Below are positions 52,436-64,000 of a DNA stretch of 64,000 nt, piece by piece (within the stretch, counting starts at the first letter, position 1; each line of letters starts with the position of its first letter). The notes under the pieces were generated by a model. The model was not told the origin of the DNA. It worked only from the letters and a program-made list of their open reading frames with translations, and made no database searches. Origin of the DNA: an uncultured delta proteobacterium (lineage in GTDB: Bacteria > Desulfobacterota > WTBG01); contig CAWCBP010000001.1 of assembly GCA_963793865.1 (NCBI GenBank), positions 384,001 through 448,000 on the forward strand, written 5' to 3'. A program made the position numbers and the translations under genes.

Positions 52436-52978
52436 ATGGCGGTACATGAAATAACCGAGGAGCAGCGGGACAGAATCGTTGAAAGAATGATTAACGTGCT
52501 CGGCCTGGAACGGAAGCATCCGACGAAACAGGAGCTGGAGGAGGAGATTATCGACTACCTGGGCAAGAAGCACCCCTGCGCCCTGGGTACCTGCGGCAAG
52601 GACGGGATACCGCGCATCTCCATGGTCGACTACATGAACGATGGCCTTACCTTATACATTTTGAGCGAGGGGGGAGACAAGTTCAAAAACATCCGGGAGA
52701 ACAATCGGGTTGCCGTGGGCATCGGCACTTCAACGCACACCATGCGCTCGGTGAGGGGGGTCAACATGTGGGGGACGGCGGACATCTTCACCGATGACAC
52801 ACCGGAGTTCGCCACAGCCCTGCAGCTTTTTAAGCCCTTCCTTGATGATATCGCAAAGCTCACCGGGAAGCCGCCGCAGCTTCCTCCCGGCGTGATGAAG
52901 GTGATCCGCGTGACTCCCGCGAGGATGATCTACTTCCATTACAACAAGGGCATCGGGAACGAGCTGTGGGAGGCGTAG
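52436..52978 (+). CDS. Pyridoxamine 5'-phosphate oxidase-like split beta-barrel protein
   Basis: GGAGG RBS; CALGTCGKDGIPRIS, LYILSEGGDKFKNIRENNRVAV, GVNMWGTA. Confidence 0.85.
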   Translation: MAVHEITEEQRDRIVERMINVLGLERKHPTKQELEEEIIDYLGKKHPCALGTCGKDGIPRISMVDYMNDGLTLYILSEGGDKFKNIRENNRVAVGIGTSTHTMRSVRGVNMWGTADIFTDDTPEFATALQLFKPFLDDIAKLTGKPPQLPPGVMKVIRVTPARMIYFHYNKGIGNELWEA

Positions 52979-53214
52979 GGAGAGGGACGTTCAGGGAATA
53001 TGATTTCGAGATGATCTGCATGGACTTGTGGTTTATTTCAAGGAAAAGATCAACATTGCACATCGCAACTTCCAACATCCAAGTCGAATGAAGAAAACAG
53101 TGTCTTTTTCGTTGGAATTTGACGTTAGTTTCGGATTTGATTCTGGACGTGCAGATGCTTCTAATCTGTCGACTGCAAACTGAAAACTGTCAACTAAGCT
53201 AAAGGAGGCGACCC

Positions 53215-54003
53215 ATGACCGTCAACCGAAACGACGTTGTAACCTTTCTTACCGAGGTGAACAGCCGCTTTGAACAATTCTGCGCGCGGTTCAACCCGGG
53301 TGGCAGGGTTGATAAAAAGTCATGGGACACACCCATGGGCAGGCTGGACGCGGTGAGATCATCGGGGGTGGTTTTTGAAAAGGCGGCCTCAATTTTCTGC
53401 GATCTTACCATCGAGACCCCGCCGGTGCTCGCTGAAAAGATCGGCCAGAAAGGCAGCCGGGCCGAGGCGTTTGTGCTGGAGATCAATTGTTACCCGGTAA
53501 ATCCGCACATTCCCCGCGGCTACATGGAGCTGAGGGCCAATATAACCGACACCATAGTTTTCGCCGGGGGGACGGACATCTTTCCTTATTTCCCGGTGGA
53601 AGAGGACGCGGCCTTTTTTGCCGGGGGCATGAAGGAGCTTTGCCATGAGCATGGGCAGGATTACGAAAAACTGAGAAAAACCAGGGCTGATTTCTTTGTA
53701 TCAAAATTCAGAAATGAAAACGTGGGGAGCCACGCGGGGATATACGCCTTCCATCTCGAGGCGCGGGAGTTCCCCTTTTTTAAGGATATGGCGGAATATT
53801 TTTTCAGGCTCTATGGCATGCTGGTGGAGGCGGGCGGGAAAAGAAGCTTCACCGCCGAGGAGCAGCGGCGCATGCGGGAGATTCACGGGGTGTGGGTGGA
53901 ATGGGTTTTGCTCGAGGATGCGGGGACCAGGTACGGTCTGGAAAAAGGGATACCACCTGATGCCCTGCTCGGAACGATCCTCCCGCCTCAGGCGACCTTT
54001 TAA
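53215..54003 (+). CDS. Divergent HemF (coproporphyrinogen III oxidase)-like protein
   Basis: GVVFEKA, PVNPHIP, FAGGTDIFP and WVEWVLLEDAGTRYGL align by eye with HemF motifs (GxVFEKA, NPxxPTxH, FGGGxDLTP, YVEFNLxxDRGTxFGL). Confidence 0.7.
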   Translation: MTVNRNDVVTFLTEVNSRFEQFCARFNPGGRVDKKSWDTPMGRLDAVRSSGVVFEKAASIFCDLTIETPPVLAEKIGQKGSRAEAFVLEINCYPVNPHIPRGYMELRANITDTIVFAGGTDIFPYFPVEEDAAFFAGGMKELCHEHGQDYEKLRKTRADFFVSKFRNENVGSHAGIYAFHLEAREFPFFKDMAEYFFRLYGMLVEAGGKRSFTAEEQRRMREIHGVWVEWVLLEDAGTRYGLEKGIPPDALLGTILPPQATF

Positions 54004-54020
54004 ATGGGGGAGGAGCGGCG

Positions 54021-61762: not shown

Positions 61763-62099
61763 CCCCTGCGCCTCACAGCTGGTGGCGCGACGGGGAATTT
61801 TTTTCCGCTCACATTCTGCTGCCTGTATTCAAGCCTTTTGCTCTTACGCTGAAGCATGGGTTCTCCTTCCTGGAGTCATGCCATTGCGGACGCAACGGAG
61901 TGCGTCCCTCCATCCCTGATATCCCAAAAAAATCACACAAATGTAATGGTTCGTTTTGTCCACCATCACATTGCAGTTCACGCCTGCCCAAAAAAATCCT
62001 CCTGCCCCTGATCCCGCTGCGCCTCGTTCCGGTAAAATCGTTTGACAAGGCGCGGCTTGTACGTTACATATTAACAATTCTGCTTTCGGAGAAAGGTGT

Positions 62100-62309
62100 A
62101 TGAAAGGATCAATCACCATTAATCAGGAACTGTGCAAGGGCTGCCTGCTCTGCGCATCGTTCTGCCCCAGGAAATCCCTCTCGCAGTCCGGTACACTCAA
62201 TCGCAAGGGATACCTTGTGGCCGCGTTTGATGCAGAGAACGGGTGCACGGGCTGCGCGACCTGCGCCCTGGTCTGCCCGGAGATTGCCATCGAGGTCTAC
62301 CGTGAATAA
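62100..62309 (+). CDS. 2-oxoacid:ferredoxin oxidoreductase delta subunit (2x[4Fe-4S])
   Basis: CKGCLLCASFCP, CTGCATCALVCPEIAIEV. Confidence 0.92.
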   Translation: MKGSITINQELCKGCLLCASFCPRKSLSQSGTLNRKGYLVAAFDAENGCTGCATCALVCPEIAIEVYRE

Positions 62310-63378
62310 GCAGCTCATGAGCGGCACCAGCGCCATCGGTGAGGCGGCAATCCAGGCGGGATGCAGGTTTTACTTCGGCTACCCCATCACCCCTCAGAAT
62401 GAATTGCCCGAGTACATGGCAAAGCGGCTGGCCGAGGTGCCGGGAGGCGTGTTCATTCAGGCGGAAAGCGAAATCGGGGCCATCAACATGGTCCTGGGCG
62501 CAAGCGCGGTGGGCGGCCGGGCCATGACTTCATCCAGCAGCCCGGGGATGAGTTTGAAGCAGGAGGGAATTTCCTACCTGGCCGGCCAGGAGCTGCCCGC
62601 GGTCATCGTGAACGTGGTGCGCGGGGGGCCCGGTCTCGGGTCCATCTATTCCGCCCAGTCGGACTATTTCCAGGCAACCCGCGGCGGCGGGCACGGTGAT
62701 TACCGCACCATCGTGCTGGCCCCGGCCTCGGTGCAGGAGCTCGCGGACATGACGGCCGAAGCCTTTGATCTGGCCGATACCTACCGAACGCCGGTCATCG
62801 TGCTGGCGGACGGGGTGCTGGGGCAGATGATGGAGCCGGTCAAGATACCCGCGCCCCGCAAGGAAGGTGAGCGGGACCTGGATTATATCCTGACCGGTGC
62901 CAAGGGGAGACCATCCAAAGCCATTCATTCCTTCAGAATGGACCCGCAGGACCAGGAGGAGCACAACTGGAAGCTGATGAGAAAATACAAGCTCATCGAG
63001 CAGCGCGAGATCCGCCATGAGACCTATTTGCTGGATGATGCACAACTGGTGGTGATTGCATACGGCACGGCCGCCCGCATCGCCAAGGGGGCCATCAAGC
63101 GGATGCGAAAGGAGAACATGAAGGTGGGGATGATTCGCCCCAGGACGCTCTGGCCCTTTCCGGCGCAGATCATCAAGGATACGGCAAAGCACATCCGTGA
63201 TTTTTTTGTTTTTGAGATGAGCGCGGGTCAGATGATTGAGGATGTGAAGCTGGCGCTGGAAGGAAAAGGCACGGTTCATTTCTACGGGAGGCCGGGCGGC
63301 GTTCTGCCGGCGCCCATTGAGCTCTACCGGATAATTACCAGGCATTACCTGCAGTCGCAAAGGAAGCGCAAGACATGA
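62302..63378 (+). CDS. 2-oxoacid:ferredoxin oxidoreductase alpha subunit (VorB-like)
   Basis: GYPITPQ, QAESE, TSSSSPGMSLKQE, RGGPGLG, EMSAGQM. Confidence 0.93.
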   Translation: MNKQLMSGTSAIGEAAIQAGCRFYFGYPITPQNELPEYMAKRLAEVPGGVFIQAESEIGAINMVLGASAVGGRAMTSSSSPGMSLKQEGISYLAGQELPAVIVNVVRGGPGLGSIYSAQSDYFQATRGGGHGDYRTIVLAPASVQELADMTAEAFDLADTYRTPVIVLADGVLGQMMEPVKIPAPRKEGERDLDYILTGAKGRPSKAIHSFRMDPQDQEEHNWKLMRKYKLIEQREIRHETYLLDDAQLVVIAYGTAARIAKGAIKRMRKENMKVGMIRPRTLWPFPAQIIKDTAKHIRDFFVFEMSAGQMIEDVKLALEGKGTVHFYGRPGGVLPAPIELYRIITRHYLQSQRKRKT

Positions 63379-64000
63379 AGAAAGTATTCTCCAGACCGCA
63401 GTCGCTGCATCCGAACCCGTTTCATTACTGCCCGGGCTGCGGACACAGCATCGTGCACCGCCTCATAGCGGACGTGGTTGACGAAATGAAGCTGCGGGAC
63501 AAGATCATCTGCGTTGACGGGGTGGGGTGCTCGGTGGTGGCGTATAATTATTTTGACGTGGACATGGTGGAGGCCCCCCACGGGAGGGCGGCGGCGGTGG
63601 CAACGGGGGTTAAGCGTGCCCGGCCCGGCGCCGTGGTCTTTACCTACCAGGGCGACGGCGATCTGGCCGCCATCGGCACCGCGGAATCCTTTCACGCGGC
63701 CAACCGGGGAGAGCTGTTCACGGTTTTTTTCATTAACAACGCGGTGTACGGCATGACCGGCGGCCAGATGGCGCCGACCACGCTTTTGGGACAGAAGACC
63801 ACCACCTCGCCCGCGGGCAGAAACCCGCTGCTGCAGGGCTACCCGCTGAAGTTCAGCGAAGTGCTCGCCGGGCTGGAGGGGACCTCCTACATCGAGCGCG
63901 TGGCGGTCAACAGCCCGGCCAACATCAGGAGGACCAGGCAGGCCATTGTTAAGGGCTTTCAGCACCAGCTCAAAAAAACGGGCTTCTCAATGGTGGAGAT
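63375..64000 (+). CDS. 2-oxoacid:ferredoxin oxidoreductase beta (TPP-binding) subunit, truncated by the window end
   Basis: Translated by hand: MKKVFSRP..HYCPGCGH, GVGCS, HGRA, YQGDGDLAAIG, NNAVYGMTGGQMAPTT. Confidence 0.93.
   Translation, partial: MKKVFSRPQSLHPNPFHYCPGCGHSIVHRLIADVVDEMKLRDKIICVDGVGCSVVAYNYFDVDMVEAPHGRAAAVATGVKRARPGAVVFTYQGDGDLAAIGTAESFHAANRGELFTVFFINNAVYGMTGGQMAPTTLLGQKTTTSPAGRNPLLQGYPLKFSEVLAGLEGTSYIERVAVNSPANIRRTRQAIVKGFQHQLKKTGFSMVE

Follow-up and report, generated by a model that had tools for sequence, protein, structure and literature searches.

The ferredoxin-dependent bilin reductases (FDBRs) PebA, PebB, PebS, HY2, PcyA, and pre-PcyA (PF05996), the red chlorophyll catabolite reductase (RCCR) of the plant PAO/phyllobilin pathway, and the coproporphyrinogen oxidase (CPO) called HemF or CPOX (PF01218) have one fold in common. 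Oxygen-free opening or reduction of tetrapyrroles, the kind of chemistry we propose below, is carried out by ChuW/ChuY and by gut BilR, whose folds (radical S-adenosylmethionine (SAM), atypical short-chain dehydrogenase/reductase (SDR), and old yellow enzyme (OYE)) differ from this one; none of these systems is known to employ proteins of the FDBR or HemF fold. Rockwell et al. (2023) proposed an origin of FDBRs, RCCR, and CPOX later than oxygenic photosynthesis, since each known member needs oxygen, and placed FDBR-like proteins of Schekmanbacteria in an outgroup with RCCR, assigning them no function (PMC10151467). Here, we analyzed a stretch of 64,000 nucleotides (the window) of contig CAWCBP010000001.1 from an uncultured member of the Desulfobacterota, which encodes two FDBR-like proteins (FDBR1 and FDBR2) and a HemF-like protein. 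The genome holding the window (G000; 3.85 Mb, 98.6% complete) has 17 FDBR-like and 7 HemF-like genes, 24 in all, in 17 loci. This expansion is real, lineage-specific, and undescribed in searchable papers: in a search that left out most subscription journals, we found no description of an FDBR/HemF-like family in syntrophs, Schekmanbacteria, or Desulfobacterota. We propose, with about even weight for and against, that these genes are a kit for the oxygen-free catabolism of scavenged chlorins, porphyrins, and other tetrapyrroles.

The HemF-like gene (positions 53215..54003 of the window, + strand) encodes 262 amino acids and matches PF01218 (E 6.5e-29; 101 bits against a cut-off of 31.8), and FDBR1 (56007..56714, - strand) encodes 235 amino acids and matches PF05996 (E 1.1e-16; 61.6 bits against 31). 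We searched AlphaFold models of FDBR1 and the HemF-like protein (predicted local distance difference test scores of 96.7 and 93.4, respectively) against 48,161 PDB chains, and both models retrieved the same ten chains far over background, namely bilin reductases, RCCR, coproporphyrinogen oxidases, and one uncharacterized subunit of a motor complex (8xks_P). For FDBR1, HY2 (Z 26.2, root-mean-square deviation 2.0 over 227 aligned residues), PebB (Z 26.0), and PcyA (Z 25.7) were effectively tied as nearest, the known FDBRs spanned Z 24.5-26.2, RCCR followed at Z 23.5, and the first unrelated chain scored Z 5.4. The HemF-like model matched CPO at Z 32.4 (2.2 over 253 aligned residues), with the first unrelated chain at Z 6.1. 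A preliminary description of this DNA had attributed the bilin-reductase and CPO folds to these two proteins, and the models bear it out; the genes it named were all found in place by open reading frames and Pfam/NCBIfam scans. FDBR2 (60940..61678, + strand; 245 amino acids in relatives) is read in two frames, 60940-61458 and 61433-61678. Its pieces singly fall under the Pfam cut-off, but the C-terminal part matches the Pfam family at E 1.5e-4, the N-terminal part matches a profile of G000's own FDBRs at E 2.4e-35, and an intact 245-residue orthologue exists, so that by sequence FDBR2 is, as described before, a bilin-reductase homologue. FDBR1 scored under every NCBIfam PebA/PebB/PcyA equivalog cut-off (best 49 bits against 327), the HemF-like protein scored under the HemF equivalog cut-off (106.7 against 297 bits), and the RCCR family PF06405 had two matches in G000, both outside the window. 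When profiles of the FDBR and HemF families were aligned with each other, the match was weak (probability 1.8%, E 0.027).

Three one-base indels interrupt genes of the window: one in the aldehyde oxidoreductase gene AOR2 (near 57994), one in a ferredoxin gene (near 60554), and one in FDBR2 (near 61443-61446). Those in AOR2 and the ferredoxin go beyond what the preliminary description had flagged. All three genes are intact in a genome of the same genus, where AOR2 has 616 residues and FDBR2 has 245 (locus L057). The frameshifts are most likely assembly errors because contigs from other sequencing runs carry compensating one-base indels, at 57994 in 3 of 4 runs, at 60554 in 2 of 4, and at 61443/61446 in 2 of 4. 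We therefore rejected the idea that these are pseudogenes, their frames being restored both in the relative and in the other runs. The runs matching the window came from freshwater, soil, and sediment samples. No RNA data set was listed as a match; one run is labelled RNA-Seq and is probably DNA.

FDBR1 resembles the known FDBRs in having an acidic residue at the Asp105 site, an Asp at the Asp206/Asp256 site, and a ferredoxin partner. Its Glu89 and Asp212 align with PebS Asp105 and Asp206 (numbering on PebS puts Glu89 at the first site, and Asp102 was discarded as a candidate for it), and Glu89, Arg100, Asp102, Arg200, Lys201, and Asp212 are invariant in 52 of 52 orthologues. Active pre-1 enzymes likewise have Glu at the Asp105 site, and in PebS, PebB, and HY2 it is the second acid that serves A-ring reduction (PMC13446030; 10.1101/2022.08.22.504806). 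The Glu76-His88-Asp105 triad of PcyA is not matched in FDBR1, which has Gly72 at the His88 site and Glu at the Asp105 site. Across the FDBR paralogues, an acid is present at the first catalytic site in 30 of 49, at the second in 39, at both in 23, and at either in 46, and none of the 49 rows has His or Asn at the His88 site. FDBR2 keeps one acid site, with Asn at the Asp105 site and Asp at the Asp206 site. Because the catalytic acids are mostly kept while a His or Asn at the His88 site is absent, FDBR chemistry looks retained and specificity looks varied among the paralogues.

The active site of the HemF-like protein is remodelled and acidic. It keeps the fold and the equivalents of CPOX Arg262, Asp282, Asp400, Gly402, and Gly406, but RRGRY reads IHGVW. 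On human CPOX numbers, which we mapped through Escherichia coli HemF by motif spacing (an inferred mapping), the equivalents of Ser244, His258, and Asn260 are Glu89, Tyr103, and Glu105 in 80 of 80 close homologues, and those of Arg262, Asp282, and Asp400 are kept as Arg107, Asp121, and Asp235, also in 80 of 80. Ser244, His258, and Asn260 are mutation-intolerant in human CPOX (10.64898/2026.07.02.735896). We rejected a true HemF on this replacement and on the equivalog score, and because the catalytic His of HemF is gone and invariant acids are present, the protein is probably a reductase in a CPO scaffold and not a coproporphyrinogen oxidase. Its Glu105 may correspond to the Asp105 site of the FDBRs, an assignment uncertain by two residues; the weak profile alignment pairs Asp102 with Asp121 and Asp212 with Asp235, and FDBR Glu89 with Arg107 rather than Glu105. 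The setting differs from that of HemF/CPOX as well, with seven divergent copies in G000, no haem-copper oxidase, and no tblastn match to E. coli HemE (E 1e-3, one query), whereas HemA, HemB, and HemC match. The one PF01208 gene of G000 lies inside a corrinoid methyl-transfer cluster.

We compared G000 with 40 relatives of the same class, 31 in four families that bear the kit and 9 in two others. HemF-like genes were present in 31/31 against 0/9, FDBR1 homologues in 30/31 against 0/9, and the AOR1 clade (see below) in 27/31 against 0/9. Among 300 genomes across the phylum, nine had an FDBR1 homologue, all from two of the four families, and 291 had none. Outside the phylum, FDBR1 is 60% identical to a hypothetical protein of Ca. 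Schekmanbacteria (RMF97992.1), with which it groups in the tree, and the HemF-like protein has an orthologue there at 56% identity. Rockwell et al. drew FDBR/RCCR outgroup sequences from this same group (PMC10151467). The paralogues are 14-31% identical to FDBR1. In a quick, midpoint-rooted tree of 74 rows, built without an RCCR or HemF outgroup from the paralogues of 4 of 12 census genomes plus four single rows, several families had about 13 deep FDBR-like groups in common. A weakly supported branch (Shimodaira-Hasegawa-like approximate likelihood ratio 80) set the 25 known-type FDBRs apart, with the G000-type proteins outside it. The tree does no more than suggest that the known FDBRs nest among those of the anaerobes. 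Since the deep groups are shared across families, we conclude that the expansion is old and maintained. Several HemF-like groups also span the four families.

Ferredoxin is the expected partner of an FDBR, and a gene in G000 (C1:67141-68142; L021:7142-8143) fuses a 2x[4Fe-4S] ferredoxin to an FDBR domain. Ferredoxins are also encoded inside FDBR operons. Together, the fusion and these ferredoxins support ferredoxin as the probable electron donor, as the preliminary description had supposed. Similar ferredoxin-FDBR frames of 330-340 residues were seen in many relatives. Unlike the hosts of known FDBRs, this one, with its 17 copies, has no heme oxygenase to supply biliverdin: PF01126 was absent from all 41 genomes (IsdG and ChuW were not searched genome-wide), in line with the earlier remark that the window holds none. 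A non-photosynthetic host was likewise upheld in the genomes tested, with reaction-centre families PF00124 found in 0 of 6 and PF00223 in 0 of 5. G000 has no haem-copper oxidase and no DsrA. The host is likely an anaerobe, as the preliminary description had it; the published class description permits low oxygen.

The preliminary description had arranged the genes as three modules, and as fixed units these did not hold. In the window, the HemF-like gene ends 17 bp ahead of AOR1 (54021..55982, + strand), a 653-residue protein of the tungsten/molybdenum aldehyde-oxidoreductase (AOR) family with AFOR_N and AFOR_C domains; AOR2 (56936..58785, - strand; frames 57952-58785 and 56936-57955), a canonical EYE-type aldehyde:ferredoxin oxidoreductase, precedes FDBR1; and a FixC/geranylgeranyl-reductase (GGR)-family flavoprotein of 483 residues (59044..60495, + strand; TIGR02032 E 1.3e-18, under cut-off; best PDB match FixC 7koe, E 8.4e-9) is followed by the 2x[4Fe-4S] ferredoxin (60507..60750, + strand; 80 residues in relatives, recognized by sequence and by its intact orthologue in L057) and FDBR2. 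Among 11 FDBR1 orthologue loci, AOR2 was upstream in one and AOR1 convergent in three, all in the window's family, while a ferrochelatase-like gene was directly upstream in six and a split-barrel paralogue flanked seven. FDBR2 had orthologues in 21 genomes, two of them with the FixC-like gene and ferredoxin upstream; several of the contigs end nearby. Of 19 HemF-like orthologue loci, eight adjoined an AOR gene, drawn from at least three AOR clades, and three adjoined AOR1 itself. We therefore rejected three conserved modules (1/11, 2/21, and 3/19). What survives is looser. FixC-like orthologues occur in 7 of the 40 relatives, always with the same ferredoxin behind them, and in five of the seven a same-fold gene is adjacent or within 2 kb (FDBR2 and a different FDBR in two cases each, and once a HemF-like gene), so this link recurs with swapped paralogues.

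For recurrence across genomes, we took a census of 76 loci in 12 genomes, chosen for their better assemblies and with loci that are not independent. GGR/FixC-like genes lay within 5 kb in 16 loci and AOR genes in 10, where G000 base rates lead one to expect about 4 and 5. Within G000 the adjacencies were 4 of 17 loci for GGR/FixC (p about 0.025) and 3 of 17 for AOR (p about 0.16). Overall, the AOR link is weak by adjacency and better by co-occurrence. G000 has 36 AOR-like reading frames, and with 24 genes of the FDBR/HemF fold beside them, three same-fold genes within 9 kb are less rare than they look. AOR1, which represents a divergent clade, keeps the CxxCxxxC cysteine motif and the conserved His, and has EFGH where Pyrococcus AOR has EYE, the Glu of which we take to be the functional Glu313 (counted from our alignment); E[FY]GH was present in 25 of 25 loci of the clade where the pattern was read, and AOR2 keeps EYE. 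We rejected AOR1 as a BamB-type ring reductase, BamB being its weakest PDB match.

A tetrapyrrole-type substrate, as the preliminary description had suggested, draws much of its support from chlorophyll-type genes outside the window. A K subunit like those of dark-operative protochlorophyllide oxidoreductase and chlorophyllide oxidoreductase (DPOR/COR) was present in 20 of the 31 kit-bearing relatives against 0 of 9, with scores under the cut-offs. BchF was present in 9/31 against 0/9; the four best copies, from three genomes, pass the TIGR02020 cut-off, and the G000 copy is under it. A BciB/HCAR-like reductase (14/31 against 0/9) matched 7-hydroxymethyl chlorophyll a reductase (HCAR, 5dqr) at E 2.6e-74 and FrhB at E 1.3e-15. 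The functions of BciB and BchF have been described (PMC7242693). These genes also keep company with the family. In G028, AOR, ferrochelatase-like, BciB/HCAR-like, and BchF genes form one same-strand run; G000 has the same run with no BciB/HCAR-like gene, a divergent BchF, and an FDBR gene 5 kb off; BchF precedes a HemF-like gene in G031; and a DPOR-like pair adjoins FDBR genes in G000, G018, and G022. A conserved operon of FDBR, SCP2, ferredoxins, FDBR, ferredoxin, and B12 radical SAM genes lies beside a P-type ATPase and, in two genomes, beside the DPOR-like pair. Uptake genes (DUF1302/DUF1329/YCF48/RND) occur in 7 to 12 of the 76 census loci and an SCP2-like protein recurs, together pointing to a substrate that is probably imported and hydrophobic. 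The BchH/CobN family (PF02514) was not found in G000 or in 12 of the 31 kit-bearing relatives. Two families of large ferrochelatase-like proteins were seen in several copies (L091:8389-10047, L089:10175-12400, L034:3917-6343, L063:10386-11858); they are apparently exported and are candidate dechelatases.

From its gene content, and not from a marker-gene tree, the lineage of G000 is very probably the Desulfobacterota class Ca. Anaeropigmentia, for which Murphy et al. report bchE, bciB, chlLNB, bchXYZ, bchF, bchC, chlP, and crtB/crtI, with no chlG and no reaction centre (10.1101/2021.03.22.436540). G000 has best-hit homologues of most of the genes listed there, and its relatives have bciB. Murphy et al. 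read the genes as a near-complete synthesis of bacteriochlorophyll a, suggest a phototrophic ancestor, and predict microaerophilic growth; the words bilin and aldehyde occur 0 times in their main text (10.1101/2021.03.22.436540). Genes reading like crtI and crtB, beside a split barrel and a ferrochelatase-like gene (L089:14174-16589), agree with the carotenoid genes reported for that class.

We picture the kit as lineage-wide, letting uncultured, non-photosynthetic Desulfobacterota take up and dismantle environmental tetrapyrroles without oxygen; the likely substrates would be chlorophyll derivatives, and probably haem and bilins too. The DUF1302/DUF1329/YCF48/RND uptake genes and the exported ferrochelatase-like proteins would catch the hydrophobic pigment and take out its metal. 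BciB/HCAR-like, BchF, GGR-like, SDR, and AOR enzymes would then strip or convert side chains, with the AORs oxidizing or reducing formyl groups and exchanging electrons with ferredoxin. In a third step, DPOR/COR-like enzymes and FDBR-fold proteins would reduce double bonds of the ring and bridges, the latter acting as PebS, HY2, and RCCR do, by passing single electrons from ferredoxin to a bound pigment without a cofactor of their own and drawing protons from active-site acids. A chlorophyll-catabolite substrate would be analogous to that of plant RCCR, which acts after an O2-dependent oxygenase. HemF-fold proteins would apply the same acid chemistry to cyclic or porphyrinogen-type substrates, in place of O2-dependent decarboxylation. 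The many paralogues would cover successive positions and different pigments, and one candidate for ring opening is the conserved B12 radical SAM gene beside two FDBRs. The function at every step is proposed on the basis of folds, copy number, distribution, neighbours, and conserved residues, and so is the direction, breakdown and not synthesis.

Several observations weigh against catabolism. BchH/CobN-family chelatases, which bear on the direction, occur in 19 of the 31 kit-bearing relatives (19 of the 40 relatives overall), and the two tested pass the BchH cut-off; one that passes TIGR02025 (L261:8906-19094, G024 C72) is 2 kb from a BciB/HCAR-like gene, with BchI/D-like, FeoB-like, and metal-regulator genes as neighbours; the lineage yielded no reaction centre. 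G000 itself is without the BciB/HCAR-like gene. The GGR, B12 radical SAM, O-methyltransferase, OYE, and SDR neighbours belong to promiscuous families and score under pigment-specific cut-offs, and steroids or other lipids would also suit the SCP2-like and DUF1302/1329 genes. The pairings of the window are mostly local, not kept beyond genus or family, and AOR adjacency in G000 is not above chance. The relatives are not independent, and a single split in the class tree may be all that lies behind the co-occurrence counts. The class description allows low-oxygen growth (10.1101/2021.03.22.436540), and scattered chlorophyll-gene homologues are common in non-phototrophs, a warning here (PMC8262859).

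Summed over all readings, we think it very likely that the substrate is some tetrapyrrole; the readings differ in what is done with it. The kit could serve to make a novel tetrapyrrole derivative, either a cofactor or a protective pigment, starting from the cell's own uroporphyrinogen III or from salvaged chlorins, as CfbCD makes F430, with the FDBR/HemF-fold proteins as tailoring reductases or carriers. The clustering of hemA, hemC, and hemB in G000, with hemL-, cysG-, and cbi-like genes beside them (recognized from their N-termini), fits such a route, as do the BchH-type chelatase of the relatives with its I/D-like subunits, FeoB-like and membrane genes, the FDBR-SCP2-ferredoxins-FDBR-ferredoxin-B12 radical SAM operon by the P-type ATPase and DPOR-like pair (two genomes), and the published reading as bacteriochlorophyll a synthesis (10.1101/2021.03.22.436540). 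We nevertheless consider it unlikely: G000 and 12 of the 31 kit-bearing relatives lack BchH/CobN, G000 has no match to the one HemE query, chlG is reported missing (10.1101/2021.03.22.436540), and 24 divergent paralogues with uptake systems and exported chelatase-like proteins suit many incoming substrates better than one product. Still less probable is a use of tetrapyrroles purely as an electron sink, as bilirubin is for gut BilR, recycling ferredoxin or NADH with no cleavage. Most kit enzymes are indeed reductases, G000 has neither DsrA nor a haem-copper oxidase, and an OYE beside an FDBR1 paralogue has bilirubin reductase as its best NCBIfam match (382 bits, cut-off 750), but this protein scores about as high against BaiCD (378 bits) and reads HGHEG at a motif where BilR has HGDR, and we rejected it as a BilR; the neighbouring hydratase, AOR, hydrolase, and corrinoid methyl-transfer genes suggest that carbon is used too.

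The fold might instead have been reused for other hydrophobic conjugated substrates, such as steroids, carotenoids, polyaromatics, or flavonoids, the chlorophyll-type genes being passengers. The SCP2-like, SDR, FAD-oxidase, CrtI-like, and DUF1302/1329 neighbours would suit this, as would the low identity of the paralogues to FDBR1 and the appearance of the fold in motor-complex subunit 8xks_P. The catalytic acid sites are kept, however, and BchF, BciB/HCAR-like, DPOR/COR-like, and ferrochelatase-like genes adjoin FDBR/HemF-like genes or their partners in several genomes, which leaves this reading as improbable as the electron sink. That the genes are relics of lost phototrophy, or belong to a cryptic phototroph or a micro-oxic lifestyle in which the HemF-like protein is a real O2-dependent coproporphyrinogen oxidase, we regard as very improbable. 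Murphy et al. do propose a photosynthetic ancestor and predict microaerophily (10.1101/2021.03.22.436540), and JGI labels many homologues 'coproporphyrinogen III oxidase', but invariant, intact paralogue families across four families are no decaying relics, the HemF-like protein misses the HemF cut-off and the Ser244, His258, and Asn260 equivalents, no HemE match was found with the E. coli query to supply the substrate, and no reaction centre was found.

Taken to its full extent, catabolism would mean that this lineage lives on chlorophyll and other tetrapyrroles in anoxic sediment by an undescribed oxygen-free pathway of about 24 FDBR/HemF-fold enzymes, DPOR-like reductases, chelatase-fold dechelatases, and tungsten AORs, a statement we hold tentatively, at somewhat less than even weight. 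If true, the published bacteriochlorophyll genes without a reaction centre would be a degradation kit, a testable answer to the puzzle of Ca. Anaeropigmentia, and the bilin-reductase/CPO fold would predate oxygen and not depend on it, PebA/PebB/HY2/PcyA having branched late from this diversity. A heme-oxygenase-free lineage in which about 13 deep FDBR-like and several HemF-like groups persist across four families directly tests the proposal of Rockwell et al. (PMC10151467). The enzymes belong to a known fold family; should catabolism be shown, the pathway would be of a new kind, and in the same literature search we found no paper naming the enzymes of anaerobic microbial chlorophyll breakdown. 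The FDBR/HemF-like proteins are small, soluble, and cofactor-free, which suits them to the standard anaerobic FDBR assay.

Other features around these genes were noted. One HemF-like paralogue of G000 (L031:7391-12951, C11) lies between a GGR-like/FAD-oxidase operon and the corrinoid methyl-transfer cluster, which consists of B12-binding, URO-D family, MtrH, and RACo genes and could take methyl groups from pigment methyl esters; in G006 (L086), a HemF-like gene stands ahead of B12-binding and URO-D genes. The PCP_red tail of BchB/BchZ, with seven matches in G000, is also fused to a major facilitator superfamily (MFS) transporter and, weakly, to a flavin-reductase-like protein (L093:6976-8526 and L090:5687-6556); we discarded it as a tetrapyrrole marker, since it is on the MFS transporter and turns up in a family that has no kit (3 of 8 genomes). 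A neighbouring atypical SDR was tried as BciA or ChuY and matched neither. At L061:6140-10877 (G000 C14:234000-239000), gatB-, gatA-, and aspS-like genes are in many small pieces, either a broken copy or a low-quality stretch of assembly.

In the window itself, a PNPOx-like split-barrel protein of 180 residues, from a flavin/haem-binding family with about 15 copies (15 matches) in G000, precedes the HemF-like gene (52436..52978, + strand; PF01243 E 1.7e-12); its matches to HugZ/HutZ are weak and far under the cut-off. After FDBR2 comes a 2-oxoacid:ferredoxin oxidoreductase operon (62100..64000, + strand; delta, alpha, and the start of beta; NF005507 516 bits against a cut-off of 399), which also follows HemF-like and AOR1 genes in G008 and is an ordinary neighbour, possibly a general source of reduced ferredoxin. 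Upstream, from 43156 to 52262, the translations read as kdpA/B/C-like potassium-uptake genes, a split KdpD-like sensor, a histidine kinase, and a sigma-54 regulator; the kinase appears frameshifted in the window and is a single 615-residue frame in L057, and no link was seen between this region and the FDBR/HemF-like genes. A promoter and terminator scan gave no signal above chance level. Between AOR2 and FDBR1, a short repeat-like intergenic element (56765-56915) is matched by many contigs from other runs that align to it alone and diverge beyond, and it is probably a dispersed repeat.

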